Shown here piece by piece: positions 3,711 to 27,215 of a stretch of DNA of 64,000 bases. Below the pieces are notes generated by a model. It worked only from the letters and a program-made list of their open reading frames with translations, was not told the origin of the DNA and did no database searches. The stretch is taken from the NCBI GenBank assembly GCA_048937405.1, contig JBHLNF010000002.1:320001-384000 (forward strand), in the 5' to 3' direction. A program made the translations under genes and the position numbers. This DNA comes from Promethearchaeota archaeon (GTDB taxonomy: Archaea > Asgardarchaeota > Lokiarchaeia > Sigyniarchaeales > SOKP01). The number at the start of each line of letters is the position of its first letter. The stretch's first letter is position 1.

Positions 3711-3754
3711 ATCATGTGGATATTAATAAGGGTTCTCCTAAACAAATGATGTTC

Positions 3755-8992: not shown

Positions 8993-9084
8993 TAGACAGG
9001 AAGCCTGAGCTCTTAAGGATTATTTCTAAAATTTTTGTATTGTTGAGCCTCTTATAAGACAAAATATTAAAGAAAAAAAAAGAA

Positions 9085-9448: not shown

Positions 9449-9593
9449 TTAACTCAACTCGACTCTATTACTTTAATTAGAAATTACACTTCTTCAAATT
9501 ATGCATTTGTGTTTTCAAAAAACCAATATTCAATTTATTTAAATCTATTGAATTGTGAGTTTTTAAATAACAAATCTTTTCTTATCATTTTGC

Positions 9594-10118
9594 ATGACAA
9601 AAAATAAAAAAAAAATACTCCTTCTAGGTCTGGCAAATAGTGGAAAAACATCTATCGCTCTTTCAATGCAAAATATTACAGATTTGGTATCGTATACTGC
9701 CTTACAACCAACAAGAGGACTAGAGATTTCGGAGTTTGAGAATGACGACACAGAATTTTTCATATGGGATTTTGGGGGACAAGAAAAATATAGAGAACAA
9801 TACAAACAAAAGTTAAATAAATATATCGCCGAAACAAGTGAGATTATATATGTTATCGATATCCAAGATGATAATGTATTTTTTATATCTGTTGTTTTCT
9901 TAAGAGAAATCTTAAATATATTAAAAACTGCTGGTTTTAAGTTTGAATTATCCATATATTTTCATAAATTTGATGATAACTTCAAACCAGATGAAGAAAA
10001 AATCAAAGATTTATTGAAAATTATTAAAGAAGAAATTCCTGAAGGGTTTACCTATAAAATTTATCATACCAAAATACATGCCCTTTTTGAAAAAAACCTC
10101 TCACCCTATACTATATAA
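9594..10118 (+). CDS. Small GTPase, Arf/Rag-like (Asgard eukaryotic signature protein)
   Basis: GLANSGKTS (G1), PT (G2), WDFGGQ (G3), HKFD (G4). Confidence 0.85.
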   Translation: MTKNKKKILLLGLANSGKTSIALSMQNITDLVSYTALQPTRGLEISEFENDDTEFFIWDFGGQEKYREQYKQKLNKYIAETSEIIYVIDIQDDNVFFISVVFLREILNILKTAGFKFELSIYFHKFDDNFKPDEEKIKDLLKIIKEEIPEGFTYKIYHTKIHALFEKNLSPYTI

Positions 10119-10269
10119 AGTTTTCTGATGCTTTGGGAAAATAATGCAATCTATAAATTTTGATTTAAATTCCCCAAAATATTAATTCTGGGATTACTGG
10201 TTATTTTTGCAATTAATTCGTCTTGTGATAATTTTACCATAATATAAATTGATGATGAGGCAGAATGAA

Positions 10270-10764
10270 TTAATATTGCGATAAGAACTCCTCAACATCC
10301 TTTATGAAGTTCATTGTTCCTTTTTCTATTTGCCCAGTTAATGCATCTAAATCTCGAAAATCCGGATTGTCAACTAACACATATTCTACCACAGAATCAA
10401 TCCCTTGTATACTCGATGGAATACGGTATTTATCCCACCCTTTTTCCCTCACCAAATCCCAATATTCTTTCTGAACAGTCTTATTGTATCCTCCCAACCA
10501 TACTTCAAACTTGAATTCCTCATGCAGAAAGACAATCGCAACTCTCAATTTTCGAGCTTTCAATAAAGGGGGGTTGACCGCGAAATATGTCATATCCATA
10601 TATCCAAAATAAATCCCACCTGACACTGCGTACTTGGGATGCTTCTTTTTAAAATACGCTCTCAATGATCCAAAATATTCCATTAATCCTCGATATGCTT
10701 TCTGAATTATCCCCTTCCTTAACTGGTTTCGATATTCAATGATACTGTCATAAAATGAACTCAT
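10270..10764 (-). CDS. Conserved hypothetical protein (DUF7000-like)
   Basis: YFGYMDMTYF and FEVWLGGYN motifs recalled from a bacterial family. Confidence 0.55.
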   Translation of the reverse strand: MSSFYDSIIEYRNQLRKGIIQKAYRGLMEYFGSLRAYFKKKHPKYAVSGGIYFGYMDMTYFAVNPPLLKARKLRVAIVFLHEEFKFEVWLGGYNKTVQKEYWDLVREKGWDKYRIPSSIQGIDSVVEYVLVDNPDFRDLDALTGQIEKGTMNFIKDVEEFLSQY

Positions 10765-10838
10765 ATATACACATTGTGGTCAATATTTTATATTTGATTG
10801 TATTCCATTATTTCCACAGATTAACTAAAGAGTTAAGA

Positions 10839-10880
10839 TTCACTGAATTTTCATTGAAATCAGACTCTGAATTTGACATT
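10839..10880 (+). repeat. Cassette-boundary repeat copy R4
   Basis: TTCACTGAATTTTCATTGAAATCAGACTCTGAATTTGACATT; perfect core. Confidence 0.9.
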
Positions 10881-11072
10881 CAAGATTCTTTTAAAATAAT
10901 TATCCGAATCAAAATGTTTGAAATTAAATATGTAATCTCACATAGTTTATTGTTCTGATCAGAACTAATAAATAAATTTAAATATAAATATCACTTACTT
11001 TTTTGCAGAAATCCTTAAAGATTAGAAGACAATATTAGAATCAAAATTAGTAATTAATTAAGGGCACTATAA

Positions 11073-12710
11073 ATGGAAATTTATGAATTTAATTCTTCAT
11101 CAATCTACCTTCCACGTGATCGAAACACAAACATAGAGACCATAAAAAGCATACTAAATGCTCCTAATGAGGCAATTTACTTGCAGGCGAGAAAACAATT
11201 TGGTGAAAATTATCACCCTTCCCTATTTGCGGAATTTGATTATCTTGAGAGAATAATATCTGGAGATGAAAATCACATTTATTATAATAATAGATCTGAT
11301 ATACATAACCTTAATAGTGATCTATATTTAGAAAATTTAAATAAAATCATTTCTCTTAGAATAAAAGAAATTCCTGAAGATAAAGAAGAACTTGCTTTAG
11401 AAGTTACTGAGAATTTGGATTTTTATCAATTTATTACTTATGATGAGCCAGATCTTTTAAAATTATTAAGCAAAGAACAATCAGAAATAATTTCGAATTT
11501 ATTAAAAATCAAAAGAGAAGAAAAAGATTATATAGACCTTCTTCAAAAAAAAGCCCATAATTATAAAGAAATCCAGGCAAAAGTTTTTGAATCTTTAAAA
11601 AAAATAAAAGACTGTCAACGAATCCATCAAGTTATCTCCATTTTTCTAATAAATAGTGTATTAATTCAATTAGATAAATTAACCTCTCGTCTGAGAACGA
11701 GTAATTTTGTTTATAAAGAAAATATTACACACTCTTCAATTTTACCTATAAAAGATCTAAACACTGAGCAAGATCTCGGTGATTTAAAAGATAATTTAAA
11801 ACAATTAATGAATAAAGCATTGGGATGGCGACTAGGGCTTCTTTTCATGGTTTGTGATACCTGCTTGAAGTTTTTAGACGACGTTCCTGTTCTTGAGCTA
11901 AAAGAGTTTGAAGGTTCTTATGCCGTAGGTTTAGGTCCATGTGGTAATTGCTCTATGATGTTTGCTAGTACTTCACTAATTTCATTGGATTCAACTTGTC
12001 ATTTTCTTTATAGTATGGGAGAGGATTGGTTAACCATACCGCTCTTCAACTATATATCATGTCCTTTTTGCGGTTATAGTGCACGGTTAGAAACTCCAGT
12101 AATGTTTCACTCTTTTAAAAGAAACCAAACAATATATTGCTTTCCAAGTTCTCTTAGGGGTAAATCCCCAGAACAATTAAATGATTTTAAAGGATTTTTT
12201 GAATCTGTTCGAAATTCTTATACAATCCGGTTATCCACCAAAGAAGTAAAAAATTTCAAAAAATCCATTGAATTAGTAACGTTTGGATGGTCAGAATTTG
12301 TTTATGCGATTCAAATGGGAAATCTTGATAAACAAGCCCATACAACTCTTATAAATAGGTATTCTCCTTCAAATCGTTATTTTATATTAGATCCTACTAA
12401 CAAGATTTCAATCGAATTAGCTCCTGAGGAGATAGATAAATATGATACCTGTGAGCCCAAATTCGAAAAATCTGAAATCATTAAAAATTTCATAAAAATA
12501 GAAAGTGTAGATGAAGCAATTGAATTGTATAATTCTGGTCAATTGTTAAAATCAAAAGAAATTCTTGAAAATCTTCTAAAGCAAGGAGGAGATAATTATG
12601 TTAAATATAATTTAGGAACAGTACTTTATGCTTTGGGAGAAGAAGAAAAAGCTAGAAAAATATTTTCCGAATTAAAAGAGATAGGATGGACACCATATTG
12701 GCAGATATAG
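11073..12710 (+). CDS. CpXC-type zinc-binding domain plus C-terminal TPR protein
   Basis: CDTC, CGNC and CPFCG motifs; C-terminal YNLGTVLYALGEEEKA TPR. Confidence 0.6.
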   Translation: MEIYEFNSSSIYLPRDRNTNIETIKSILNAPNEAIYLQARKQFGENYHPSLFAEFDYLERIISGDENHIYYNNRSDIHNLNSDLYLENLNKIISLRIKEIPEDKEELALEVTENLDFYQFITYDEPDLLKLLSKEQSEIISNLLKIKREEKDYIDLLQKKAHNYKEIQAKVFESLKKIKDCQRIHQVISIFLINSVLIQLDKLTSRLRTSNFVYKENITHSSILPIKDLNTEQDLGDLKDNLKQLMNKALGWRLGLLFMVCDTCLKFLDDVPVLELKEFEGSYAVGLGPCGNCSMMFASTSLISLDSTCHFLYSMGEDWLTIPLFNYISCPFCGYSARLETPVMFHSFKRNQTIYCFPSSLRGKSPEQLNDFKGFFESVRNSYTIRLSTKEVKNFKKSIELVTFGWSEFVYAIQMGNLDKQAHTTLINRYSPSNRYFILDPTNKISIELAPEEIDKYDTCEPKFEKSEIIKNFIKIESVDEAIELYNSGQLLKSKEILENLLKQGGDNYVKYNLGTVLYALGEEEKARKIFSELKEIGWTPYWQI

Positions 12711-13312
12711 TTGATTTTATTAAGAATCCAATCGGTGCAATTACAGCATTAATAGGACTTATTGCTGCAATATTGGGGCTTGCTTATACCATTTTAAAAA
12801 TTATTAAAAAGATAAAAGAAATTAAAGAACAGCATAGAACTTCAGCTCTTCTAAAGATAACAAATCTTAACCTCTCAGGAACAAATTATAGTGAAACTAA
12901 GGAACTACGATTTCAATTAGTAAATGATGGAAAAACAACTGTTATTTTAAAGACAATGAAACTTACTATATCTGAGTGTGGTCCTAATAAAAATTTACGA
13001 ATGATAGTACCTGGAGCGGAACTACAAGTCTATGAATATAATTTGGATTTAGATCCAAATCAAAGTGAATATGAGATAATTTCTTCCAATTATACTAAGG
13101 AAAAACCTCCATTATTCTATAAAAATGGAGAAGCAGACGCTTTTCTCATAAAAATCTCCTCGCAGCAAGCTTATTGGTATCAATTTTCAATTCTGGTAAT
13201 TTGGTATTCCACTGATAAACCAAATGAAATAAGAAATACTCAAAGTCGAGAAATGAGAATTGAATTCTCTAAAACTGAACCAGAAGAAATATTAGATATG
13301 ATTGATCTCTAA
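12686..13312 (+). CDS. Hypothetical protein, N-terminal TM helix plus beta-rich domain
   Basis: Hydrophobic N-terminus; overlaps the upstream gene. Confidence 0.6.
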   Translation: MDTILADIVDFIKNPIGAITALIGLIAAILGLAYTILKIIKKIKEIKEQHRTSALLKITNLNLSGTNYSETKELRFQLVNDGKTTVILKTMKLTISECGPNKNLRMIVPGAELQVYEYNLDLDPNQSEYEIISSNYTKEKPPLFYKNGEADAFLIKISSQQAYWYQFSILVIWYSTDKPNEIRNTQSREMRIEFSKTEPEEILDMIDL

Positions 13313-13340
13313 ATCTCAGAACTTCCGATTAAAAAAATTT

Positions 13341-13951
13341 TTAAATTCCGAATATTAAAATGAATGGTAATAAAGTAATGAAATGTAAATATAGATTATA
13401 TTTAACAAATTCTCTGATAAAATATGGTGTGTGTAATAGATTAAGATATCTTAATAAATCTTCGGAAATATCCTCTGAGGATTTAACTCTTTCAATAAGG
13501 TCCTCAGGATAAATTAGATTACTTGTTAAATATTGAAATTTCACCAAAGCATATATAATAATTAAAAAATTAATACCAAATAATATTATAGAAATAGAAC
13601 CAAAAACCATAGTTAGACGTCCTGGTGATGTAGTTCCAAAATAATATAAAAAGAAAAATCCAAAAAACACGGAATAAGAAATACTTAAGATTTCTAATGA
13701 TCTAATAATAACTAATCTTTTTGCGATAAAGACTTTACGATCTGTTCTTTTTTCTTTAAATTCTTTTTCTTCCCTCTCTGTTTTATAAAATGCAATTAAT
13801 ATTGGAATACCTTGATAAAAAGAAAATAGAAATAACCACCCAAATGGTCCCCAAAAAAAAAACCTGGAAAAGTAGTGAAAATAACAATTAAAGAAATACT
13901 AATAGGTATGGAAATTATGAAAATCTTACTTTCTCTTTCTAATTCTTTCAT
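13341..13951 (-). pseudogene. Membrane protein split by a frameshift in a T10 run
   Basis: ORF from ATG 13951 (MKELERESKIF...) joins the 13341..13670 frame if one T is added at 13853-13862. Confidence 0.65.
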
Positions 13952-14228
13952 ATTAATCTAAATTCAAACCATTTATTGATTTATGAAAATTATTGTTATA
14001 ATTGATTTCTTAAAAATAATGTACTTTACTTATTTATAATTGAAATTCAAGTTCTATATGAGGAGGACTGTATTTAAGTTTTTAGTTTTCAAGATTAATA
14101 ACATCCTTATATACATTTTTTTTCAATTGTTTTTTGCTGTTTACCAATAATACATTATTATTTCTAAAACCAGAAAATGAAAAAAACAAATAGATGATGG
14201 TTTTTATAAGATATTTAGTTTATTTTGT

Positions 14229-14306
14229 TTTTTCAAAGGATTTTTCATTGAAACCAGATGCTGAATTTACATTCCATTTCTAATTTCAAAGCAAAATTAG
14301 ACAAAA
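14229..14306 (+). repeat. Cassette-boundary repeat copy R5 (long form)
   Basis: TTTCAAAGGATTTTTCATTGAAACCAGATGCTGAATTTACATTCCATTTCTAATTTCAAAGCAAAATTAGACAAAA. Confidence 0.9.
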
Positions 14307-14386
14307 AGATTTTAGTCCTATAGATATTTATCTATATTTACTTCTCTCCTTATGAACTCTTAATACTTTTTTAGGACATAAATATC

Positions 14387-14899
14387 ATGGTTCGAAAAAT
14401 CAAGGTAGTTCCACATGATCCAAAATGGAAAAAAAAGTTTATTTTGGAAGCTAGAATCATTAAATCGATTTTTAACCAAGAAATCTTAGCAATCTATCAT
14501 ATAGGGAGCACGGCCATCCCTGAAATTAGTGCTAAACCTATTATTGATATTTTGGTTGAGGTGCATAATATTGATGTAATAGATGACTATAATGCTAAAA
14601 TGATTGAGCAGGATTATATACCCAAAGGGGAGTTTGGTATCCCTAGAAGGAGATACTTTATAAAAGGAAGTGAAGAATTTAGAACATTTCATGTTCATGT
14701 CTTTGAAAAAGGGAATCCTGAAATAACGCGTCATTTAAATTTTAGAAATTATATGATTGCTCATCCTAAAAAAGCGCAAGAATATAGCCAATTAAAAGAG
14801 AAACTCGTGCGAGAATACCCAGAAAATATAAATGGCTATATAAATGGAAAAGATTCCTTCATTAAAAACATAGATAAAAAAGCTAGAGATTGGAGATAA
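14387..14899 (+). CDS. GrpB family (UPF0157) nucleotidyltransferase-fold protein
   Basis: HIGSTAIP, AKPIIDI, HVH, FRNY and YINGK motifs. Confidence 0.9.
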   Translation: MVRKIKVVPHDPKWKKKFILEARIIKSIFNQEILAIYHIGSTAIPEISAKPIIDILVEVHNIDVIDDYNAKMIEQDYIPKGEFGIPRRRYFIKGSEEFRTFHVHVFEKGNPEITRHLNFRNYMIAHPKKAQEYSQLKEKLVREYPENINGYINGKDSFIKNIDKKARDWR

Positions 14900-14913
14900 T
14901 TTGTTTATAATTT

Positions 14914-14958
14914 TTCTACGAAATTTTCATTGAACTCAGACTCTGAATTTACCTTTCC
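14914..14958 (+). repeat. Cassette-boundary repeat copy R6
   Basis: TTCTACGAAATTTTCATTGAACTCAGACTCTGAATTTACCTTTCC. Confidence 0.9.
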
Positions 14959-15082
14959 TGAAAGTTATGACTTCTATATCAAATCAGAATTTAATAGGAT
15001 TAGCAGAAATAAAAATTAAAAAAAAGGGAATCACATAAACAAATTAGCAGGATTGTAAACGTGGGTAAGTAAATCTTCAAAA

Positions 15083-15355
15083 TTATTCTTTTGAACCAAT
15101 TTTCGTTCGAATAATTTTAAACACTACGGGGTTATTCGGATCTGGACAACAAACCATTGTTGTATCCTTATCTTGGGACCAAGGAAAAGAACCGTCAAAT
15201 CTTAATGTGGTAATAGACGGATAAATCGTATGATACGCAGACTGGCAAAGTTTCCCAACGTCATCGGGATATTTAAATTTATCACCGACCTTATGCCCTA
15301 GAGGACATTCTCCTCTTTCGAGGATTTTAACAATCTCTAAAGTAATTTCATTCAT
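15083..15355 (-). CDS. TIGR04076 family Cys-rich small protein
   Basis: CPLGHKVGD, LCQSA and CCPDPNNPVVF motifs. Confidence 0.8.
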   Translation of the reverse strand: MNEITLEIVKILERGECPLGHKVGDKFKYPDDVGKLCQSAYHTIYPSITTLRFDGSFPWSQDKDTTMVCCPDPNNPVVFKIIRTKIGSKE

Positions 15356-15456
15356 TATTTTTCCACCTTTATTTAATAATTATTTTAATCTTTTCATTAA
15401 TTAAACTATTTCTTATCTTAGAGAGATTCTCCAATATTTCTAGAAGTACCTTCAAT

Positions 15457-15505
15457 TTTTTCAAAGGAATTTTCATTGAAATCAGACGCTGAATTTACGT
15501 TTTCT
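15457..15505 (+). repeat. Cassette-boundary repeat copy R7 (overlaps acyltransferase stop codon)
   Basis: TTTTTCAAAGGAATTTTCATTGAAATCAGACGCTGAATTTACGTTTTC. Confidence 0.9.
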
Positions 15506-16687
15506 CAAATGAACTTTTTCAAGGACAAAATGACTCAATAGATAGCAAACTATAACTGTTAAAGGAAATACAATTGCCACTTTTAAAGTAGGATAAATTC
15601 TTAAGAATGCAAATCCAAGTGATATAACAATAAGGACGGGTGGATGAAGAAGGTACATATGATATGCGCTACTGGATAGGTTATGTAATATAGATCCTTG
15701 TTTATTGAATTTTGAGTAAAAAATCTTAATCAAAATAAAAATAACTCCCATACAGATGACATTATCAACCATAGCAAGTAAAAAAGCATGCAAATTGAGT
15801 CCCCCATTGAAATCTATAAATTCTTTGTCCATTGCTATAGCTAGAAAAAAATCAATATAAATTATTACGAGTGAAATTATTATTGTAATTAACCAAATTT
15901 TTACATGTCTTTTAGTCATTTTTTCGAACCAACGATACCTAATGCAAATAACTCCAATGCTGAACATCATTAGATACTGAATAAGTTGACCCCATGGTAT
16001 TTCCAAAGGGCGTACATCTATAGGTAAGAATATACGAACTAAAAAAGTAAGAAATCCTAACCCTATAGCTAAAAGAAGTAAATAAGAATATTTTGGAATC
16101 GAAAATTCCTTTGGAATTTTTTGCTGTACCCAACCTAACTTAGTTACTTGACGCCAAAGTGTATAAACAGCAGTGAATATTAGTAAAACCTTAAGAAACC
16201 ACATAGGGCCCCCAAATGAAATGAAGTTAATAAAATCTTCCCAAGATAAAAATCTACTGAAGTAATAATCTAAAAATGTTCCTTGCAGCATAGGGTTTGT
16301 ATTCCAAGAAGGGATCCCTAATTTTGCTAGGGTATAAATCATAAGAGGATTTATTAATAGGGTATAAACAAGGAGAGGGATGCCGAGACGAATAAGGCGT
16401 TCTTTCCAAAAACTGCGAACACCTTTTCGATCATAACTTTTAGGAGTAAAATAACCCCCTAATAAAAAGAATAATCCTAAGAGTGAAGTTTGAAAAACAC
16501 CTCCTATTGAAGCGACAAGTAGAAAGAAAATTTCACTGAATGGATCAACTGGATTAGATTCTTTATAATACCACCACCCTACTTCAAAATAAGTGACCAT
16601 TGTGTGCCAAAAAATCACTAGAATAGTAAAAAGGACTTTTATATTGTCAAGGAAAAGATACCGTATTCTCTCAGATTCTGTGTTCAT
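15482..16687 (-). CDS. Acyltransferase 3 family (MdoC/OpgC-like) membrane protein
   Basis: FLDNIK...H, FFLLGGYF, RLIRLGIP, MWFL and YLLH motifs; multiple TMs. Confidence 0.9.
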   Translation of the reverse strand: MNTESERIRYLFLDNIKVLFTILVIFWHTMVTYFEVGWWYYKESNPVDPFSEIFFLLVASIGGVFQTSLLGLFFLLGGYFTPKSYDRKGVRSFWKERLIRLGIPLLVYTLLINPLMIYTLAKLGIPSWNTNPMLQGTFLDYYFSRFLSWEDFINFISFGGPMWFLKVLLIFTAVYTLWRQVTKLGWVQQKIPKEFSIPKYSYLLLLAIGLGFLTFLVRIFLPIDVRPLEIPWGQLIQYLMMFSIGVICIRYRWFEKMTKRHVKIWLITIIISLVIIYIDFFLAIAMDKEFIDFNGGLNLHAFLLAMVDNVICMGVIFILIKIFYSKFNKQGSILHNLSSSAYHMYLLHPPVLIVISLGFAFLRIYPTLKVAIVFPLTVIVCYLLSHFVLEKVHLRKRKFSV

Positions 16688-16893
16688 ATGAAATATTATA
16701 ACCTTATTAACTCTATTTCTTCAACTCACAACGATTTAATTATTTTTTTTGATTTAAAACCCTTAGCATTTATTTACACATATAATTTCATCTAAGATCT
16801 TAATATTTTTTGTTTATTTGATTATATAATAAAAAGATGGGTTTTAAAAAAGAACATACCAATCTTATTACTTTTTATTTTGTCTTTTTGTAT

Positions 16894-16972
16894 GGAATTT
16901 TCACCAAAATCAGACTCTGAATTTACACTTCCATCCAATTTTCACAGAAAATTAAGACAAAATTTAAAAAGG
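16894..16972 (+). repeat. Cassette-boundary repeat copy R8 (long form)
   Basis: GGAATTTTCACCAAAATCAGACTCTGAATTTACACTTCCATCCAATTTTCACAGAAAATTAAGACAAAATTTAAAAAGG. Confidence 0.9.
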
Positions 16973-17057
16973 CTCGAACCGTGTGTTTCTTAAAAAGGAG
17001 GAAAATACAAATAAGAGAAAAATGCATTAGAACAAAAAAATGATCTAATGTAGAAAA

Positions 17058-18164
17058 ATGAGAGAGAATAAAATAATTACTGATATAGAGCAGTTAACAC
17101 CAGAATGGTTGACGAGGATCCTCAAAAATAAAGGATACTTTAACCAAGGAAAAGTAACTAAAATAATTAAGAAAAGATCACAAGAAACTATAACTTCTAA
17201 TGTACATTTCTTAGAGCTAAACTTTTCAAATGATGCTCAAACGGAACCATCTTCTTCTGAAATAGTTGTAAAAATCCCCAAATCCAATGACGTATCTAGG
17301 TTTGTTGGGAAACATGAAGCAAAATTTTATCGTATCGTAGCTGAAATGATGAGCGAAATGCCAATTCCAATCTGTTATGATGCAGCGTTTTCTGAAGAAA
17401 CTGGTTTTTCACATATTATCCTTGAAAATTTATCAAAAACACATGTGGAAAATTTCGAATATCCTCCTTCAAAACGAAATAATGAAAGAGCAATTGACTG
17501 TTTAGCAGAATTACATGCTTTTTGGTGGGATCACCCCATGCTTAAGGAACTATCGAAAAATTCTTACGTTCTTTACACATTTAAAGAAAATTCTTTTAAT
17601 AAAGAAGAAATTTTTAAATGGTTTAATAACCAGAAAATGACACTCAAGCCATTTTTAGAAATCTTAGGAGAACGAATAGGAAATAAAAGTAAGGAGTTAT
17701 TTAAAACCATATTCTCATTATATCCTCAAGTGGCATATGAACGAATCGCAAAAGAGAATATAACAGTAATCCATTGTGATGCTCATTTCGGGAATTTTTT
17801 CTATCCAAAAGACATAATAGATCAAAAATATAAAACAATATTACCTGATTGGCAAAATTGGAGTATCGGTGTAGGAGGTCAAGATCTAGCATATATGATA
17901 GGACTCTCTTTCTTTCCTGACTATCGGCATTTAATGGAAAAAGATCTTATCAAACGTTATCATAATAAGCTTTTAAAGTCAGGTGTGAAAAATTATAGCT
18001 GGGACGAGTGTTGGTATGATTACAAGTTATTTACTATATTAAATATTTACAGAATTATCTGGTGGTGGAGTATTGGTATACCTTCTATAGTTTGGTGGCC
18101 TCAATTAGAAGCTTCCATTAATACTATAAAAGATTTAAATTGTATGGAGCTTTTAGAAAGCTAA
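17058..18164 (+). CDS. Aminoglycoside/choline/ecdysteroid kinase-like phosphotransferase
   Basis: HCDAHFGN Brenner motif, DWQ, DLAY. Confidence 0.85.
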   Translation: MRENKIITDIEQLTPEWLTRILKNKGYFNQGKVTKIIKKRSQETITSNVHFLELNFSNDAQTEPSSSEIVVKIPKSNDVSRFVGKHEAKFYRIVAEMMSEMPIPICYDAAFSEETGFSHIILENLSKTHVENFEYPPSKRNNERAIDCLAELHAFWWDHPMLKELSKNSYVLYTFKENSFNKEEIFKWFNNQKMTLKPFLEILGERIGNKSKELFKTIFSLYPQVAYERIAKENITVIHCDAHFGNFFYPKDIIDQKYKTILPDWQNWSIGVGGQDLAYMIGLSFFPDYRHLMEKDLIKRYHNKLLKSGVKNYSWDECWYDYKLFTILNIYRIIWWWSIGIPSIVWWPQLEASINTIKDLNCMELLES

Positions 18165-18494
18165 AATACTTATAGTTTTTTTTTTAATAAATTTCATTGT
18201 TGGAATTGTGTCTTTAGTTCCGTACACCAGACTTAATATGAGAAGAAGGAAGAATCAGATGCAAAATCCTCGAAATTATAAATAACTCCTCTTTTTTTAA
18301 TTTAAAGAAAATTAAGCCTCTTTTTTTGAAAATTAATATATTGCTCGAAACCAATCACTGCATCCAGTAATATCAGTAACTTTATCTTTCATCCCTGGAA
18401 TATTTGCTAATAAAATATTGAAATTCAAGAATAAATTATATAAAAGAGCGTATCTTCCTCTCTTTTAATCCAATAATTTTTTACAAAAAAGTAA

Positions 18495-19253
18495 ATGAAG
18501 GATGAAATAATTATTAAAAGAAAAGTTTTATTGTTATCGATTTTCGCTATTCTTGTATTTTTTTCAGTAATAAATTTCTTGCCAGTTGTTCACGGTTTAA
18601 ACCTTAATATCAATGATGCAGAAAATGATGTTATCCGTAATTGCGGTACTGGGGACGATACTGGCGATTATTATGATGAAATAGATATTGTTAAACTCAT
18701 TATTTCTGGAAGAAATGTTAATGTAACAATAGCGGGTAGTTTAGCTAAGTGGAATCTAAGTCACTATGGGAGTGTTATATTTTCTGAATGGTTCAGGGCT
18801 GTTTCAGCCCCCAGTTATTTTGCATATAATGTTCCTTATTATGCTATTGATTACGATAATGACATTGGTTCGATGGTAGCTAAATTGGAAAAGGGATACC
18901 CTCTTAATGATGAAGGTTATGCTTATGAAGTTTGGAATGGTACTGCCTGGGAAGATAGATTTGATATGGTAGGAAGTCCTTTCAATATAGTAGACACTGT
19001 GACTAATCATTCAATAACTTTTTATATTCCTGATGCAGTTGAGGAACTTCCAAGCAATATGAAAGCAGTTGTCAGTAATCGTTTCTCAAAAATCTTTGGG
19101 AACTGTGATTTTATAGATTTTACTCCTCTTCCTTCTGATCATGGGATTAATTCTGATCAATGGATTTCTAGTTATGATATATTCGTACTTATATGTACTA
19201 TGATTGGTATTTCATTTATAATAATTAAAAACTACAAAACACAGAATCCATAA
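18495..19253 (+). CDS. Secreted protein with C-terminal sorting-signal-like tail
   Basis: N-terminal signal; C-terminal ISSY, TM helix, basic residues. Confidence 0.7.
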   Translation: MKDEIIIKRKVLLLSIFAILVFFSVINFLPVVHGLNLNINDAENDVIRNCGTGDDTGDYYDEIDIVKLIISGRNVNVTIAGSLAKWNLSHYGSVIFSEWFRAVSAPSYFAYNVPYYAIDYDNDIGSMVAKLEKGYPLNDEGYAYEVWNGTAWEDRFDMVGSPFNIVDTVTNHSITFYIPDAVEELPSNMKAVVSNRFSKIFGNCDFIDFTPLPSDHGINSDQWISSYDIFVLICTMIGISFIIIKNYKTQNP

Positions 19254-19310
19254 AACAAATTATTTAATTTCTTATTTTTTCTTTAGCTATAATCTAAATT
19301 TAAAACCTTA

Positions 19311-19657
19311 ACTCATGAAGGAATAATCTGCAGCGGTTATTCTTATATGAGAGTCATAATAACACCGTTTCGGGAAATAATATAAATTATAACTATCGTG
19401 GAATATATATACATGGCAGCTCTTATTATGGAACAATTAGTAATAGCAATTATATCTAAGGAAACACTTTAATCGGAAATTATTGTTGTATTTACAAAGA
19501 TGAAATTTGTTACGATAAAATTATTGAAAATAACGATTGTGGTGAAAGCAACGAGAGATTCCCTTTCGGAATTTTAATTTCAATTATTAGTATAGGAGGT
19601 GTAATAGGGATAGCAACCATCCTTCTAATTAGACACAAAAGGAAAGGAACGGGATAA
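19311..19657 (+). pseudogene. Fragment of a NosD/parallel beta-helix surface protein with Loki-CTERM-like tail
   Basis: NNTVSGNNINYNYRGIYI...*GNTLIGN...IENNDCG, then IPFG-ILISIISIGGVIGIATILLIRHKRK*; internal stop and frameshifts. Confidence 0.65.
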
Positions 19658-19839
19658 TACACTGTTATAATGGTACCTCATGAAACCTCTCCAAACACTT
19701 GACTTACCCTCACGCTCTAAGATTGAAACTTGAGTGTCTAAACACTAAAATAAAAAATTTTAATTATTTGAGAAGGTTCTATTTTATATAGTATCAAGGA
19801 CGCGGATTAGCGGTAAATATCAAGGAGAGTAATAAAAGA

Positions 19840-20341
19840 ATGAGGATTTTACTATTTCTCCATGGAACCTGTATCATGCACAGGAATGCCTTAGGTCTAT
19901 CAAGAATTCAAATAGTACAGCAGGTTATTGAGGATAATGATCATTCAATCTCTGATTTTGCTTCGTATATTCCAATTGGTAAAGTTATTAAGAAATTAAC
20001 ATCATGGAAAAATCAAGGGGCTGAGATTTCATATCTTAGTTCTCATTTAACTCTTGAAAACGTGAAAAGAGACGAAATTGTATTAAAAAAATGTAATTTT
20101 CCTAAAGGCACCATATTTTATCGACAAAAAGAGGAAGATTGGAACGTACAAATTGAAAAAGCAAAACCAGATATAATAATTGAAGATGATTGCGAGAGTA
20201 TTGGAGGAAAACATCAGATGACTTTCCCTAATCTTAAACCGGAATTACAATCTAAAATAATTTCTATTGTTATAAAAGAATTCGGGGAATTGATCATCTT
20301 CCTGATGATATAAATAGACTAAAGGATTTTGCTGCTGAATA
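19840..20341 (+). CDS. HAD-like hypothetical protein; C-terminus frameshifted in a G4 run
   Basis: ILLFLHGT and IIIEDDCESIGG; adding one G at 20284-20287 gives EFGGIDHLPDD...AE*. Confidence 0.6.
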
Positions 20342-20359
20342 ATGATATTTTAATAAGAC

Positions 20360-20436
20360 TTTTCAAAGGAATTTTCATTGAGATCAGACTCTGAATTTAC
20401 CTTTCCATTCCAATTTTCACAGAAAATTGGGACAAA
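20360..20436 (+). repeat. Cassette-boundary repeat copy R9 (long form, best consensus)
   Basis: TTTTCAAAGGAATTTTCATTGAGATCAGACTCTGAATTTACCTTTCCATTCCAATTTTCACAGAAAATTGGGACAAA. Confidence 0.95.
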
Positions 20437-20610
20437 TATTACTTTATTAATGATACATTCGAGCAATAGTATTTTGTTTTTCAAAATTCATAACTAAATC
20501 CTATATCTATATACTATTTTATAATTCATTAAGTGGGAATTTCTCAAATAAATTTAAATAAAAGCTCTTTTATAATTAAGTACAAGTTAATCCCACTAAT
20601 TAGCAAAAAA

Positions 20611-21162
20611 ATGAGAAAAATGAAATTAGCTAATAAACTAGTCATGCCTTTAGTTTTGGTTCTTTTATCTCTTCCAATTAATGTTGGAGCAACATATTGG
20701 CTTAAGGACAGTTTTGAGGAGTCTAAAGTCGTTAATAATGAATTTTGGTACTTTAATTTAGGATCGAGCACTGCATCTTACAAATTAGATATTGACATAA
20801 CGAGTGAAAGATCCATAGATGTTTTGTTTATGGATGATGAAAATTATTATAAATATGATTTTGGAAGTAATTTTACGTATTTTGCCGGAGCAAGTCAATT
20901 AGATATAACTTTCATGGACGTTGTTTATACTACAACTCCACAAATTGCTTACTTTTTAGTAATTGACAACACGGATAATGTACCGAATGGAGCAAGTTAT
21001 ACGGGTCCAACAAATGTAACTGTGAAGGTTATTTCTACGAGAGTAGATGGTAGTAACCTCACTATACCTGGTTATCCAATATTGATCCTTGGTGTATTTA
21101 CTGGAGTTGCTGTTATTATAAGCTATAAGAAAAAGAAAAAAAGTTTTAAATTTATAAAGTAA
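20611..21162 (+). CDS. Secreted protein with Loki-CTERM-like sorting signal
   Basis: Signal peptide; C-terminal IPGY, TM helix, KKKKK; ATG 20611 preferred over GTG 20533. Confidence 0.75.
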   Translation: MRKMKLANKLVMPLVLVLLSLPINVGATYWLKDSFEESKVVNNEFWYFNLGSSTASYKLDIDITSERSIDVLFMDDENYYKYDFGSNFTYFAGASQLDITFMDVVYTTTPQIAYFLVIDNTDNVPNGASYTGPTNVTVKVISTRVDGSNLTIPGYPILILGVFTGVAVIISYKKKKKSFKFIK

Positions 21163-21219
21163 ACTATTTCAAGTAAATTATTCTCTTTTTTTACCCCAAT
21201 AGAGAATAAAGGTTTGTTA

Positions 21220-21291
21220 TTTTCAAAGAAATTTTCATTGAGCTAAGACGCTGAATTTACCTTTCCATTCCAATTTCACAGAAAATTGGGA
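21220..21291 (+). repeat. Cassette-boundary repeat copy R10 (long form)
   Basis: TTTTCAAAGAAATTTTCATTGAGCTAAGACGCTGAATTTACCTTTCCATTCCAATTTCACAGAAAATTGGGA. Confidence 0.95.
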
Positions 21292-21401
21292 TTTAATGAT
21301 ATTTTATTTTTAAAGATTTGTTATATCTAAATTTATTAAAAAGATATTGTTTTTTAGAAATGCTCTGATTATTATAATTACTACCTGTAAAAGTAGCTAT
21401 T

Positions 21402-22034
21402 ATGAATAAATTAAAAGTTCCTTATCGTGTAACTGAGGGACAAGCTAAAGCGGCTGCTAAAACACTTGCTCGAGCATTCCATGATTACCCCATACATACT
21501 TATTTATTCCCTGATGAAGATGAAAGAATTAGAAAGGTACCAATACTTATGGAATATTTAGTTCGTTATGGAATCATCTATGGTGAAGTATATGGTAGCT
21601 CACCAAATCTAGAGGGTATAGCTGTTTGGCTTCCTTTTTGGGATGCTGAAATGACTGAAGAGAGATTAAAAAAATGTCGTATGTCTTATAGAGATGGTAA
21701 AGAACTTCCCTCTGTATTTGATGAGGAATTTTCTAAGAACTATGAACCTATAGAACAGTGTGAATACAGATGTCATAAACAATACGCTGATTTTTTTAAC
21801 TGGTATTTATATCCAATTGGTGTAGATCCAGATCATCAAGGAAGTGGCTATGCGGGGTTATTATTAAGATCGAAATTCGAGGAAATTGACAAACAAGATA
21901 TACCTTGTTATTTAGAAACTTATAAGGAAAAAAATGTTCCGCTCTATCAACATTTTGGTTTTAAAACTGTTGAAACCGGAATAATAACCAGAACAGATCT
22001 TACATTTTGGGCAATGTTACGCAAAAAAGATTAA
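21402..22034 (+). CDS. GNAT family N-acetyltransferase
   Basis: IGVDPDHQGSGYA, CYLET, LYQHFGF. Confidence 0.9.
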   Translation: MNKLKVPYRVTEGQAKAAAKTLARAFHDYPIHTYLFPDEDERIRKVPILMEYLVRYGIIYGEVYGSSPNLEGIAVWLPFWDAEMTEERLKKCRMSYRDGKELPSVFDEEFSKNYEPIEQCEYRCHKQYADFFNWYLYPIGVDPDHQGSGYAGLLLRSKFEEIDKQDIPCYLETYKEKNVPLYQHFGFKTVETGIITRTDLTFWAMLRKKD

Positions 22035-22041
22035 GAAATTA

Positions 22042-22126
22042 TTCCACTAAATTTTCATTGAACTCTAACTCTAAATTTTCCTTTCCATTCAATTTTCACA
22101 GAAAATTGGGACAAAAGTTAAAAAGG
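22042..22126 (+). repeat. Cassette-boundary repeat copy R11 (long form)
   Basis: TTCCACTAAATTTTCATTGAACTCTAACTCTAAATTTTCCTTTCCATTCAATTTTCACAGAAAATTGGGACAAAAGTTAAAAAGG. Confidence 0.9.
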
Positions 22127-22217
22127 TTGGGAGGACAACTAATCGTCTCCTAATTAGAGGCAAAGATTATAAATATTATCATATCTTAATTTTTGTTGAA
22201 AAAGAAGGATTTATATT

Positions 22218-22610
22218 ATGCAAGAAAAGTGCCTTGATTGTGGAGCGGATATAAAACCAGGATGGGATTTCTGTCTGACATGTGGTTCAAAATTCGCAGA
22301 TCAGATGGAAAGGACCCTAGAAGAGCAGCAAATAATAGATAAAAAAATAAAAGAGAAGCAAAAGCAGCAAAAAAAGGAATTTAAAGAAAGTATGCGGGGA
22401 CGGAAAGAAAGGAAGAGAAAGGAGATTAAAAAAGCTATTCGAAGATCAATGATGAAATTCCTTATATTCCTTGGGATCAGTCTTTTGACAGGGATAATTG
22501 GATTTTTCATTGGATCAATTTATTTTGATCAGGGGGGTCTAGGATTTATTATTGGATTTTTTACTCCCTTGATTGTGTTAGGTGTTATAGTATGGATTTC
22601 TAATTATTAG
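22218..22610 (+). CDS. Zinc-ribbon, coiled-coil, 2-TM protein
   Basis: CLDCG...CLTCG; two C-terminal TMs. Confidence 0.75.
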   Translation: MQEKCLDCGADIKPGWDFCLTCGSKFADQMERTLEEQQIIDKKIKEKQKQQKKEFKESMRGRKERKRKEIKKAIRRSMMKFLIFLGISLLTGIIGFFIGSIYFDQGGLGFIIGFFTPLIVLGVIVWISNY

Positions 22611-22767
22611 TCTTAGATTTCATCGAGAGGGAGAAAATTTTTTTTTAATAGTTTATAGAAGGGAGTGATGTTGGGTGAGCAAATTGGATAACACCCCCTC
22701 CCCTTGAAAAACCACTGATCATGGATGGTTGTTCCATATAGCAGAAATTTACTAATTTTCTGATTTA

Positions 22768-22812
22768 TTTCAAAGGAATTTTCATTGAACTCAGACGCTG
22801 AATTTACATTTC
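22768..22812 (+). repeat. Cassette-boundary repeat copy R12
   Basis: TTTCAAAGGAATTTTCATTGAACTCAGACGCTGAATTTACATTTC. Confidence 0.95.
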
Positions 22813-22970
22813 AATAATAATATACTCTTGAAATTAAATATAAAAGAAAAAATTATAATTAATTTTCACTAACTTTGAAGCATCTTACACAAAATTACTT
22901 CAACCTGAAAATACAAGCAAAATTGCTTCAAAAGACATAAGTAAATTATAAAATCAATCTTTAAACTCCT

Positions 22971-23897
22971 TTATGTTAAAAAAATGGGGAGGAAAGTGAT
23001 AATTGCTGATATTTTTGTCAATAATCCAATTTTTATTAATTTCTCGTCTTTTAATTTCAAATAAAGAGTAAGATAAAAGTTTTGCTTTGACCCCGATTCA
23101 TATTGTATCCGCCTTTGGAGAATTTTTATTATCTTCTTTCTTTCACTAATCTCCTTTTTTATTTTGAAAGCTAAAAGACTAGGGATTAATATGTACATTA
23201 TGTAAGTAGGGGAAAAAATTATAAGAATCAGCCAATAATGATAAATATAACTGCTTAACGGAAAAACAGAATAAATATCAAGAAGAAAAGGAAAAAAAAA
23301 TTGTAAATCAAGCATAATGAAGCGAGAGAGATCCCAATATCTAAAATAAAAATTTTCAATCGAAGAATATTCCAATTTTATATCAATGTGTTCCTTAAAA
23401 TAATACATTTTAATAGCTTTACCTATCAATATAATAGTGAATAAGGAGGACAATGCTAGCATTATAAATATTATAAATATTGATAATGTGGATATAATCT
23501 GTTCAACGTTTAATATGATAATAAATAAATTAATTATAGGTAAGGAGAGCAAACCTAGATATAAATAGATAGTTACAATGTAGGAAATTAAATGCATCCT
23601 TTTTAAAAATCTCAATGAAGAGTAAATATTCCTACTCTTATCATTTTCAGTTATCTCAGTTAAATGAAATTTCTTAAACCTATTGCTAATCCTATCTATA
23701 TTATTTCGCCAGTATAAATATTCTCCTGATTTATAGAAGATACGGTTATTAGTAATTACATATATAGTAACCTCTGTTTTATCAGGTAAATTTAATATTA
23801 GTTGATGAATCTCATCAGAAGTCAAATCGATGATCTCTTCGTGAAATAAATCAAATTTACCTGTAGAAGTATTAAAGTTTCTAATCAAAACTTCCAT
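22971..23897 (-). CDS. Hypothetical membrane protein
   Basis: 308-aa ORF with several TMs. Confidence 0.6.
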   Translation of the reverse strand: MEVLIRNFNTSTGKFDLFHEEIIDLTSDEIHQLILNLPDKTEVTIYVITNNRIFYKSGEYLYWRNNIDRISNRFKKFHLTEITENDKSRNIYSSLRFLKRMHLISYIVTIYLYLGLLSLPIINLFIIILNVEQIISTLSIFIIFIMLALSSLFTIILIGKAIKMYYFKEHIDIKLEYSSIENFYFRYWDLSRFIMLDLQFFFPFLLDIYSVFPLSSYIYHYWLILIIFSPTYIMYILIPSLLAFKIKKEISERKKIIKILQRRIQYESGSKQNFYLTLYLKLKDEKLIKIGLLTKISAIITFLPIFLT

Positions 23898-24015
23898 ACA
23901 AAATCATACAATTTTTTCATTGAATTAATTATAGCAATATCTCAAGATATTTATTCTTAACCCTCAAAATGGTTCTTAGGAGTTTAAATGGCTTATAGAT
24001 ATATTTTAAAATAAC

Positions 24016-24171
24016 TTATACAGAATCAATGCGTCTTGAAACCCGCGCAATAAAATACACCTCGTTTTCCTTTTTTTTATTGCTGACAAGTTTTCCACCA
24101 AAATACCCTCCAACACCTCCAACACCAAAAATACATATTGTCTGCTTTTCTGATGTTCCCCCTTTACTCAT
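24016..24171 (-). pseudogene. Truncated N-terminus of ketopantoate reductase (PanE/ApbA family)
   Basis: MSKGGTSEKQTICIFGVGGVGGYFGGKL...EVYFIAR then early stop; Rossmann GxGxxG typical of PanE. Confidence 0.75.
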
Positions 24172-24381
24172 ATTCATACCTGTATCATCATCCTAAAGTT
24201 TTAATCTTAGTATCAGTCTACTCATATTTTAAGATTATGTATAATCCCTTTAGAAAGTTTAAACTATCCTAAGTAATTAAAAGAAAAATAGAAAGAAAAT
24301 ATGGCAGAATGATAATGAGAGATACGAATAATGAGATACCATTAGATAAATTATTTAAATCCGCTCCTCTTAAGTTATTTT

Positions 24382-24591
24382 ATGGGAACGTGTCCATTTT
24401 GTAGTAAAGAACTTCTTATAGAAGATTTTTTCCATTCTTACAAGAAAGAGACAAAGAAAGGAAAAATTAAAGTTAAATTAGGTGATTTTAAAGGAGATAA
24501 AAGACAACTCACAGTTAATCATAATGTACGCATGTGGTCTTGTCCATCTTGTGATGCTATTTTGGGATTTTCTGAATTTGCATCATACTAG
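24382..24591 (+). CDS. Small zinc-finger protein
   Basis: CPFC...CPSC. Confidence 0.7.
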   Translation: MGTCPFCSKELLIEDFFHSYKKETKKGKIKVKLGDFKGDKRQLTVNHNVRMWSCPSCDAILGFSEFASY

Positions 24592-24691
24592 TTTCGCTCT
24601 TAACTTATCTTTACTAATATGAAACTTAAAGTAGGAAAGCAATGAAAAGAGAAAGAAGAGGATATAGTGGATTGTAGGTTGGAGTTGAACT

Positions 24692-24919
24692 ATAATAACA
24701 GAAAATCAATTAAAGGATAAGGAAAAAGAACCACCAAATTATATGACCATTGATGAAATTACCAAGTTGCTTGTGGAAGTAAGGGTTGATCTAACCATAT
24801 TAAAGAAATCGGTTACCTCCAAGAAAATAAAAGAACAATTAAAATGGGCAATTAACGGAATTGATATTGTTGGATGTGAATTAAACCAAAATATAGCCGA
24901 AAAATTAATAGAAAAATAG
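24692..24919 (+). CDS. Small hypothetical protein (ATA start at 24692 or ATG at 24743)
   Basis: Open frame ...MTIDEITKLLVEVRVDL...IEK*; GGAG lies upstream of the ATA. Confidence 0.45.
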   Translation: MITENQLKDKEKEPPNYMTIDEITKLLVEVRVDLTILKKSVTSKKIKEQLKWAINGIDIVGCELNQNIAEKLIEK

Positions 24920-24955
24920 AAAGAAAAAATAAAGAAAATAAATTAATTGAAACTT

Positions 24956-26641
24956 CTAATACATTCCCGGGGGCATGCCCATACCACCACCCATCCCACC
25001 CATTCCAGGAGGCATACCTCCCATCCCCCCACCAGGAGGCATTGGAGGCATTGCAGATTTAGCAGAGGCAATTACATCATCGATGCGTAAGATCATGGAG
25101 GTAGCTTCTGTCGAACTTTTAATCGCTTGTACTTTTACGACAGTTGGTTCGACAACGCCTATGGATGACATATCATTGACCACATCACCAGTATCGAGGT
25201 CATGTCCCGCGAATTTTTGCCCTTGCTGATGTGCAGCTCTTAATTTCATGAGGGTATCAATCTGGTCGAGCCCAGCATTTTCAGCAAGAGTTTTAGGAAT
25301 GATATCAAGGGAATCCGCAAAGATTTCGACAGCAAGTTGTTCACGACCGCCAAGGGAAGATGCATACTTTCTGAGTTGGATTGCGGTTTCAACTTCAGGA
25401 GCCCCACCACCGCCCACAAGTTTTTCATCTTCCACCACATCTCTAACAACACAGAGAGCATCATGAAGGGCTCTTTCAACTTCATCAACGATGAGTTCAG
25501 TCCCGCCACGGATAAGGATGACAACTGATTTTGGGTCTTTACATTCTTCAATAAAGATCCAAGAGTCGTTCATAATTTTCCGCTCTTCGACAAGACCTGC
25601 CCATCCGAGCTTTTCAGGGACAATATCATCGAGGTTTGTAAAGATAGTGCCACCGGTGGCTTTAGAGAGTTTTTCGATATCGGATTTTTTAACCCTTCGT
25701 ACAGCCATGATACCGGCTTTAGAGAGGAAATGTTGAGCCATATCATCAATTCCTTTTTGGCAGATAAGAACTTTTGCGCCAGAGTTTTGAATTTTTTTAG
25801 CCATATTTCTGAGCATATTTTCTTCTTCATCGAGGAATTGTTGAATTTGTTCAGGGCTGTTGATTTGTAGTTTGGAGTCAAATTCAGTTTTTTCAATTTC
25901 GACGGCGCTTTGTAGAAGTAAGATTTTGGCATCGGTAACGCTTTTTGGCATTCCGGGGCTCACAACTTCTTTATCGAGGATAATTCCTTTAATGAGATTA
26001 GTATCATCGATTGAATCGCCTTGTTTTTTCTGAATTTGGACTTTTTCGATGTCAGCGACCCATTTTCCATTCTCAGTTTTTTCAGAAATAGCTTTAATCG
26101 CATCCATACAGATTTGAGCGAGTTTTTCTTTTGATTCAGAGACAATCTTGCTGGACATACAGGTCATAGCGGCGTTTTTAAGACCTTTTTCATCGTCAAT
26201 ACCACTTTTTATGGAAATACTATCGAGTATTTCAACTGCTTTTTCGGCAGCTTTTCTGAATCCTTCAGTAATGACAGTAGGATGGATTTTTTGTTCTATG
26301 AGCTTTTTTGCTCGTTTAAGGAGTTCTCCAGCGAGTATAACTGAAGTAGTGGTTCCATCGCCAACTTCAGAATCTTGAGTTTTAGCGACTTCTACCATCA
26401 TTTTAGCAGCAGGATGTTGGACATCAATTTCTTTTAAAATAGTAGCGCCGTCATTGGTGATGACGACATCGCCAAATTGGTCTACGAGCATTTTGTCCAT
26501 ACCACGAGGTCCAAGAGAAGTTCTCACAGCTTCAGCGATGACAATTGCGGCAGCAATGTTATTTTGCATAGCATCTCTACCGCGTTGTCGTTCAGTGCCT
26601 TCTTTCATAATTAATACGGGTGTTCCGCCTAATTGTGCCAT
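24956..26641 (-). CDS. ths: Thermosome (group II chaperonin) subunit
   Basis: [17 protein letters not shown] and GDGTTT motifs; GGM-rich tail. Confidence 0.98.
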
Positions 26642-26864
26642 TATTTATCACATTTTATAATTTTAATTTAGACAAATTTTTTTGAAATACAATTTTCTTT
26701 ATATAGATCTCTAAGTCATAAAATTAAAAAAGTTTACGATTTTTGGTATTTAAAATGTAAAAGGGTTAAATTTGCGAGTTTGAAGATTAGTATTTATAAA
26801 TTGAAAAAGTTAAAGAATGCAAATTTGTAATTTTTTTATAGAGGTTAAAACTACCAAATAACTC

Positions 26865-27215
26865 CTATTTAGCTTTATCTGATATTTTTTGATCTATTTG
26901 TGCTATATTATGGGCAATGGGAGGACTTCTTTTTTGTTTTTTAACGGTATTTCCAACTGCAAGGATAATAGCTATGGAGAAGAATATACCATTAAAAAGG
27001 ACAGAACCATCAGGTAATATTTTAAAAAATATATATGCTAATATCATAAAAACTACGAAGATACTTGCTGGAATTAAAATCTGTTCGAGACTTAATACTG
27101 GTTTGAGCTTAGAAGCTCTAAATTGAATTATAATAAATAAAATTATAATATAAATAGAAGGGACTATAAGTAATATATTTCGTAAAAAAATTTCAGATCT
27201 CGACATCTCAAACAA
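26865..27215 (-). CDS. Small membrane protein
   Basis: Three hydrophobic segments. Confidence 0.5.
   Translation of the reverse strand: MFEMSRSEIFLRNILLIVPSIYIIILFIIIQFRASKLKPVLSLEQILIPASIFVVFMILAYIFFKILPDGSVLFNGIFFSIAIILAVGNTVKKQKRSPPIAHNIAQIDQKISDKAK

Follow-up and report, generated by a model that had tools for sequence, protein, structure and literature searches.

What are the short repeats that separate one gene from the next in this part of an archaeal genome, and how are the genes between them gained and lost? The window analysed here is a stretch of 64,000 nucleotides of contig JBHLNF010000002.1 (assembly GCA_048937405.1) from a Promethearchaeota archaeon of the class Lokiarchaeia. 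The host genome measures 4.47 Mb in 29 contigs with 28.9% G+C and encodes a thermosome, an Arf-family GTPase and a DUF7000 protein. About 12 copies of a conserved 46-nt block occur in the window, in the same orientation within each array. A sequence-only reading of part of this window had described them as a repeat family with interchangeable left and right arms and had suggested crossover inside their core, possibly on a bulged single-stranded hairpin as in the attC sites of integrons. We consider that the most likely mechanism, with a probability of about 60%, is site-specific recombination by an enzyme that acts in trans on a duplex core site, in an integron-like cassette system.

The repeat family is real and far beyond chance, since the core pattern matched 8 times in the window and was never found in 100 shuffles. 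Using nhmmer, nine copies were detected on the + strand (10839-22816) and three on the - strand (2966-4886). A profile search of the whole genome recovered 24 strong copies and about 6 weak ones; outside the window they are mostly paired and bracket a single gene. The window copies lie 18-170 nt past the stop of the preceding co-oriented open reading frame (ORF) and 130-200 nt ahead of the next one, and in three cases the next gene is on the reverse strand. From the flank and arm classes assigned in the sequence-only reading, we reconstructed that its copies R1-R4 are outside the piece of sequence it dealt with and R5-R12 inside. The copies of this genome, its relatives, public genomes and metagenomes were aligned in sets of 127, then 295, then 462.

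The conserved 46-nt block is formed by a T-run, a left motif of 6-7 nt (CAAAGG in most copies), a 31-nt centre and CCTTTC. Within the centre, two arms, AATTTTCATTG and (T/G)CTGAATTTAC, flank a nine-base middle, AAATCAGAC, and each arm holds TTCA/TGAA three bases away from the middle. Conservation reaches 83-99% at most positions of the centre and about half at the T/G site. Both arms carry more information than the middle, a likeness to recombinase core sites. The only truly polymorphic base is the T/G that directly follows AAATCAGAC, with T in 51% and G in 44% of copies. Genus-wide, the third A of GAAAT varies as well (A 83%, C 11%); these two positions match the variable hot spots noted in the window copies alone. 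Minor alleles within the core are private. Together with the single consensus found in two genera, such private variants indicate that the sequence itself is under purifying selection, which points to its recognition by a protein. Neighbouring copies of the window array differ in the nine-base middle (AAACCAGAT, AACTCAGAC, AGATCAGAC, AGCTAAGAC and others). If exchange needs identity of the middle, such differences would stabilise the present cassette order.

The flanks were compared on 271 in-register copies. On the left, CAAAGG with at most one mismatch accounts for 52% of them, a one-base-shorter CACTAA type for 16% and other forms for 31%. On the right, 21% carry a long hairpin arm and the ends are multimodal. 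The sequence-only reading had sorted the left flanks into two classes and the right flanks into long and short ones: two left modes and the long arm do exist, but neither side is a clean dichotomy. It had also reported all four left/right combinations, and these are present at the frequencies expected if the two sides assort independently (2x2 table 35,107 / 8,36; Fisher p=0.42). This free combination is explained by each copy being a hybrid of two histories.

The two sides of the repeat are indeed inherited with different neighbours. Among the 127 copies, 31 pairs shared the left flank only, 29 the right flank only and none both; among the 295 copies the corresponding numbers were 85, 40 and 1, and the 462 copies yielded just 2 pairs with both flanks in common. 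For the mapping of the crossover, recent pairs were selected (flank score of at least 80 out of 100) and one best pair was kept per cluster; as the genomes are related, the pairs fall short of full independence, and keeping one per cluster limits this effect. In the left-shared pairs (19 clusters), positions were identical in 15-19 of 19 cases up to CATTG and in 16-19 of 19 within AAATCAGAC. At the T/G base, identity was found in 7 of 19, for a chance value of 0.47, and the positions further right were conserved, then at chance level past CCTTTC. Sequence inherited with the left neighbour thus extends as far as the C of AAATCAGAC. The right-shared pairs (12 clusters) were identical in 3-11 of 12 cases up to CATTG, in 11-12 of 12 within AAATCAGAC and mostly in 11-12 of 12 to the right of the T/G base, which was itself concordant in 11 of 12 (binomial p=0.002). 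Sequence inherited with the right neighbour starts at the A that follows CATTG and includes the T/G site. Between the two sets of pairs the difference at the T/G base is significant (Fisher p=0.003).

Co-inheritance of the left side through AAATCAGAC and of the right side from just after CATTG places the exchange within the nine-base middle, AAATCAGAC. Crossover in the core, as proposed from the window copies, is thus borne out by the unlinked flanks and by the per-position co-inheritance, and is narrowed to this interval. Minor alleles of the left 6-mer are shared by left partners only and variants past CTGAATTTAC by right partners only; within the core, the private nature of the variants makes this comparison uninformative. 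Short-pattern searches for half sites were swamped by chance matches in A+T-rich DNA and left few clear ones, in which the breakpoints lie in or adjoining AAATCAGAC.

The DNA between two repeats is a cassette of 0.3-3.5 kb, usually with one gene in either orientation, and co-oriented arrays with this spacing are found here and in relatives. Accessory enzymes of many kinds make up the cargo, among them GNAT, alpha/beta hydrolase and methyltransferase, and most ORF families are singletons. To follow the cassettes, positions 9000-27000 of the window were compared by BLAST with 40 species of the genus. The thermosome gene was about 77-83% identical everywhere; the DUF7000, 90-aa, acyltransferase, EcKL and 157-aa cassettes recurred in scattered species, at other loci and with 85-94% identity. 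Every recurring cassette match ends at a repeat. For instance, the left flank and core of R4 are co-inherited with the DUF7000 gene in G003 (88% identity), and similarity stops at the right edge of the core. In a three-genome alignment of the EcKL cassette, unrelated DNA upstream of the repeat gives way to near-identity downstream; in that of the 90-aa cassette, identity spans the left flank and core and ends directly after CTGAATTTAC. One case of presence and absence was found: contig L060 has the order A-B with one site, and L256 has A-C-B with two sites 798 nt apart, the extra cassette C holding one co-oriented 191-aa ORF. An exact-protein look-up of the GNAT cassette returned as its sole match another assembly of the same organism, which offered no strain variation.

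The range of the site was determined with a search allowing up to 3 mismatches in 27 nt. It was present in 51 of 53 genomes of the genus and 38 of 42 of a second genus; over the family as a whole it was found in 100 of 133 genomes, including a few from seven other genera. In six other families of the class, 26 genomes were searched and none had it, and a reversed-pattern control gave 0 matches in 160 genomes. The public contigs with the repeat are all metagenome bins. Most bear the label Promethearchaeota or Promethearchaeia, by which NCBI now designates the Loki group of Asgard archaea, and some have different Asgard labels.

We propose that the repeat is the double-stranded recombination site, or junction, of a cassette system in one Lokiarchaeia family. 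The DNA to the left of the middle belongs to the upstream cassette and the DNA to the right to the downstream cassette, and cassettes are gained, lost and reshuffled by exchange in the nine-base middle. As none is encoded at the arrays, a sequence-specific recombinase would act in trans, and the arm-middle-arm layout would suit a tyrosine recombinase in outline. A more complete proposal, that of a family-wide gene capture in Lokiarchaeia with a 31-bp duplex core, exchange inside AAATCAGAC and a recombinase encoded elsewhere, possibly XerA, forming an independent analogue of integrons, is tentative and in our estimate falls somewhat short of an even chance.

Several observations weigh against a site-specific system. 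No recombinase gene was found in or next to any array examined, and the recombinases of the genome amount to XerA, a sporadic tyrosine recombinase and a broken serine recombinase; a Y1 transposase (Y1_Tnp) was not found in the genome. XerA also occurs in families without the site, and its distribution does not single it out. The best arm-spacer-arm reading of the site is 11 + 8/9 + 11, with a weak arm symmetry of 6/11. The breakpoints of the half sites scatter over about 10 nt, no circular cassette intermediate was seen, and at the downstream joint of the EcKL cassette four genomes show quite different left motifs. The linkage at the T/G base could also be expected under homologous exchange. 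Finally, most of the data are metagenome bins, in which repeats can cause misjoins. On this last point, a single-contig chromosome record (CP070831.1) has the same array layout, a second assembly of the organism keeps the cassette order over 7.4 kb with 99.97% agreement, and reads of the usual length exceed the 46-nt block, all of which count against misassembly. The second assembly breaks inside the last site (L153, where the end of a GCA_048937415.1 contig corresponds to window position 22804), and many other arrays end contigs (L024, L026, L027, L029, L031, L037). Since metagenome assemblies break at the repeats, they probably capture the accessory gene pool of these archaea incompletely.

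The recombinase was searched for both in the arrays and in the genome. When 381 array-associated ORFs from about 15 genomes were clustered, most remained singletons and no recombinase recurred. When 81 cassette ORF families were compared with Pfam, the 25 most frequent of the 118 matched families comprised accessory enzymes only and no recombinase. A PF00589 search of the genome detected two tyrosine recombinase genes, neither of them near an array. The first, XerA, scored 238.9 bits with model NF040815 (cut-off 220) and 96 bits with the integron-integrase model TIGR02249 (cut-off 265), which it fails, and it is single-copy in 22 of the 24 genus genomes searched. As the sole tyrosine recombinase that nearly all searched genomes of the genus contain, XerA is a candidate for the recombinase of the site, and no more than that. 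The second, a 391-aa protein (G000:C28:147980-149152, or L043:1481-2653 on the - strand; G005:C2:108523-110796), was rejected as a general enzyme because it is sporadic, being found in 3 of 41 genomes; it probably belongs to an unrelated integrative element. In G005, its homologue directly adjoins xerA.

The main rival explanation dispenses with a dedicated enzyme. The motif would be a conserved functional intergenic module (for example a terminator, an insulator or the site of a family-specific DNA-binding protein), and cassettes would be shuffled by homologous recombination between identities of 30-46 bp, either with foreign array DNA that had been taken up or from one locus to another. The failure to find a dedicated recombinase and the strongly differing EcKL joints are in its favour, as are the T-run ahead of the site and the TATA-like A/T stretch past the long arm. 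It could also reproduce the observed linkage at the T/G base, because a mismatch there leaves the longer identical block on its left, and crossovers would be biased to that side. Against it, the left arm AATTTTCATTG is unlinked in the right-shared pairs, where identity in 102 of 132 cells does not exceed background; crossovers spread over the block would often carry this arm along. Moreover, two genera keep one consensus without concerted drift within each genome, and 30-46 bp is short for efficient homologous exchange. A general promoter role is contradicted by the reverse-strand genes that follow many copies. On balance we regard homologous exchange as unlikely, although it is the best placed of the alternatives to site-specific recombination.

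The motif could instead be a shared operator or promoter of a regulon, with no role in DNA exchange. It does lie 130-200 nt ahead of five or six co-oriented window genes and contains double-stranded palindromes of the kind bound by dimeric regulators. A regulatory element of this sort would not be anticipated ahead of reverse-strand genes or at both ends of units moving between species, where the motif is also found, and orthologous genes lose the neighbour on the other side, with 0-2 pairs having both flanks in common. This makes the operator reading improbable.

Decay of one longer element was also considered, in which the copies would be variously truncated remnants of a miniature inverted-repeat transposable element (MITE). 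Such elements, like the repetitive extragenic palindromes and their mosaic arrangements (REP-BIME), are recognised by terminal inverted repeats or hairpins of the REP type and by target duplications; they lie in either orientation and have a cognate transposase (e.g. Y1 or the REP-associated RAYT). The nested right ends of the Loki copies (short, hairpin, TATA-like, about 140 nt) and some degenerate and half copies are what truncation would leave. The copies nevertheless have no pair of terminal inverted repeats, no target duplication and no matching truncation of the left ends; they are co-oriented within arrays, their core does not form a hairpin, no Y1 transposase was found in the genome, and their two sides are co-inherited with different neighbours, unlinked. 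The sequence-only reading had named such random decay as the outcome that would overturn the idea of hybrid copies, and with co-oriented arrays and independent sides it is already largely refuted and very improbable.

In true attC sites, structure is kept and sequence is variable: an imperfect palindrome with extrahelical bases and RYYYAAC/GTTRRRY boxes. On both strands, the single-strand folds of the consensus and window copies had energies of -1.3 to -4 kcal/mol and z-scores of -0.5 to +0.4. R9 with its arm reached -2.1/-2.4, which it owes to the 9-bp hairpin of the long arm, the one part that adds stability, and not to the core. The three nested dyads that had been recognised in the core (TTCA-T-TGAA, TCAGA-C-TCTGA and the outer AAAGG...CCTTT) are all present in the consensus, but they are no more stable than shuffles and almost devoid of compensatory change. 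In the 127 copies, changes in the dyads fall on one side and break the pairing, and double changes hardly occur: 43% of copies have A-G in place of the inner A-T pair of TCAGA-C-TCTGA, and the pairs of AAAGG/CCTTT are disrupted in 17-44%. Conserved GTT...AAC boxes are not visible in the consensus, and no match to Rfam 15 was obtained for the whole window at gathering thresholds or for positions 10700-23000 at E-values up to 0.1. Ghaly et al. (2022) found attC-type integrons and clusters of attC sites lacking integron-integrases (CALINs) in archaea, enriched in Asgard genomes, about 8% of which have such integrase-less arrays (PMC9668308). Despite this precedent and the integron-like architecture of the arrays, true attC sites recombined by IntI as folded single strands are the least probable reading of all, and the bulged hairpin suggested earlier is not upheld, as the core folds like shuffles on both strands without covariation, primary sequence is conserved in place of structure, and XerA stays far below the integron-integrase cut-off.

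The system proposed here, site-specific exchange at a duplex core, can be set against those already known. Integrons are the classic system by which single genes are stored and exchanged, and their integrase is a tyrosine recombinase with an IntI-specific extra domain; to our knowledge, integrons in Archaea are known only as attC-type arrays. As in sedentary chromosomal integrons and CALINs, the Loki sites are co-oriented and separate what are mostly single accessory genes, each cassette is transferred as a unit from locus to locus and from species to species, sites number one more than cassettes, some ORFs enter the site, and the cargo is mainly acetyltransferases, hydrolases and unknowns. 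Unlike them, the site is a sequence-conserved duplex motif of 31-46 bp, whereas attC is a structure-conserved variable hairpin; R-box triplets and IntI are absent, cassette genes lie in either orientation, many with their own upstream module, and each genome has several arrays, pairs and single sites in place of one platform. A second comparison is with Xer-dependent elements, namely the integrative mobile elements exploiting Xer (IMEX) that insert at dif, and the pdif modules known from Acinetobacter plasmids, both of which depend on a housekeeping tyrosine recombinase encoded elsewhere. They too are small gene modules bounded by short arm-spacer-arm sites, and the single-copy XerA of nearly every genus genome searched would have the corresponding position. 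But pdif sites alternate in orientation and the Loki sites are direct. The described archaeal dif sites, which may not represent the lineage's own dif, have a better arm symmetry than the Loki site and a 28-bp layout of 11+6+11, with two inverted arms and a 6-bp spacer (PMC2958812), against 11+8/9+11.

Our literature searches found no paper on an integron-like non-attC cassette site in Asgard archaea. The site behaves like an integron yet differs in site type and enzyme, which suggests that in these archaea gene capture was solved a second time, independently. If true, the archaeal lineage closest to eukaryotes would have evolved its own, separate analogue of integrons, which would supply accessory enzymes at several chromosomal hot spots; gene flow among Asgard archaea bears on models of gene acquisition by eukaryotes. 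The nine-base exchange point between two conserved arms would provide a concrete 31-bp substrate. The copies, mapped crossover intervals and cassette genes of the window are described in Table 1.

Table 1. Repeat copies, mapped crossover intervals and cassette genes, in window positions
Feature	Position	Strand	Remarks
Junction copy R4	10839-10884	+	nhmmer E 2.5e-12; CACTGA-type left flank, short right side; moves with the DUF7000 cassette to its left
Junction copy R5	14228-14310	+	Variant long right arm; GrpB cassette (Pfam match) downstream
Junction copy R6	14910-14962	+	Atypical left flank CTACGA, short right side; next cassette is the reverse-strand 90-aa ORF
Junction copy R7	15456-15505	+	CAAAGG left flank, short right side; reverse-strand acyltransferase ORF (15482-16687) terminates within
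Junction copy R8	16885-17030	+	With extended right module of ~140 nt (hairpin, AAATTTAAAAAGG, GGAGG), into the EcKL-kinase cassette
Junction copy R9	20358-20436	+	Perfect 9-bp hairpin arm
Junction copy R10	21219-21296	+	Long arm; GNAT cassette downstream
Junction copy R11	22039-22125	+	CACTAA-type left flank, long arm; zinc-ribbon membrane-protein cassette downstream
Junction copy R12	22766-22816	+	Final copy of the array, short right side
Junction copy, oppositely oriented left array	3663-3711	-	nhmmer
Weaker copies of left array	2966-3011 and 4859-4886	-	Between radical-SAM and methyltransferase genes
Mapped crossover interval, example copy R9	20381-20389	+	AGATCAGAC here, AAATCAGAC in consensus
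Equivalent intervals, R4-R8	10857-10865, 14251-14259, 14933-14941, 15479-15487, 16907-16915	+	
Equivalent intervals, R10-R12	21241-21249, 22061-22069, 22788-22796	+	
Cassette row	14260-22787	+ array	ORFs and Pfam matches
GrpB cassette gene	14387-14899		
90-aa ORF	15083-15355	-	
Acyl_transf_3 gene	15482-16687	-	
EcKL kinase gene	17058-18164		
252-aa and 157-aa ORFs			Between the EcKL kinase and the 209-aa ORF
209-aa ORF	20533-21162		
GNAT gene	21402-22034		
Zinc-ribbon protein gene	22218-22610		

The long right arm, with its hairpin and A/T-rich TATA-like stretch, is a 5' module of some cassettes, lying outside the site. A column-wise covariation test on 31 long arms was flat, because the stem shifts register between variants; five stem sequence variants remain paired, as judged by eye. 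A role of the arm as promoter was rejected: it is linked to a forward downstream gene in the window, but this link is weak genus-wide (14:12 vs 22:45, p=0.10). In a subset of the long-arm copies, the arm extends into a common module of about 140 nt, which is found at 16927-17030 in the window and also at L040:1325-1470, L037:6120-6270 (-) and L008:720-867 (-). Its order is the hairpin, AAATTTAAAAAGG (similar to a TFB recognition element, BRE, and TATA box), CTCGAACC, then GGAGG and a short non-conserved ORF. The module precedes various cassettes, with genes in either orientation, and has no Rfam match.

The two window arrays, at 2966-4886 (-) and 10839-22816 (+), point away from each other, with radical-SAM, DUF362/EF-hand, Arf-like GTPase and DUF7000 genes between them. 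Sites are also located within a few kb of the thermosome gene in G002 and G018, and the thermosome neighbourhood may be a conserved hot spot for sites. Within the 3.5-kb interval 16916-20380, probable decayed junction sites were noted at 18186-18215 and at about 19725-19755; the match of the EcKL cassette in other species stops near 18199, and the match of the 157-aa cassette begins near 19731. This interval appears to consist of three former cassettes fused together. The acyltransferase ORF runs on the reverse strand into the site at 15482-15503, where its final seven codons are site-derived; read on the other strand, the TCA in AAATCAGAC forms its TGA stop, which thus lies inside the crossover interval.

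Individual half sites were also observed. Two joints independent of each other, the L170 copy at 2533 (-) and the L103 copy at 6574 (+), keep the right part, from GAAATCAGAC or AAATCAGAC on, with unrelated DNA leftward; such joints are expected from exchange with a non-canonical partner site. The L134 copy (-), a left-only half site, continues as a perfect 21-nt palindrome, GGAATTTTCATTGAAAATTCC, which resembles an inverted duplication centred on TTCATTGAA.

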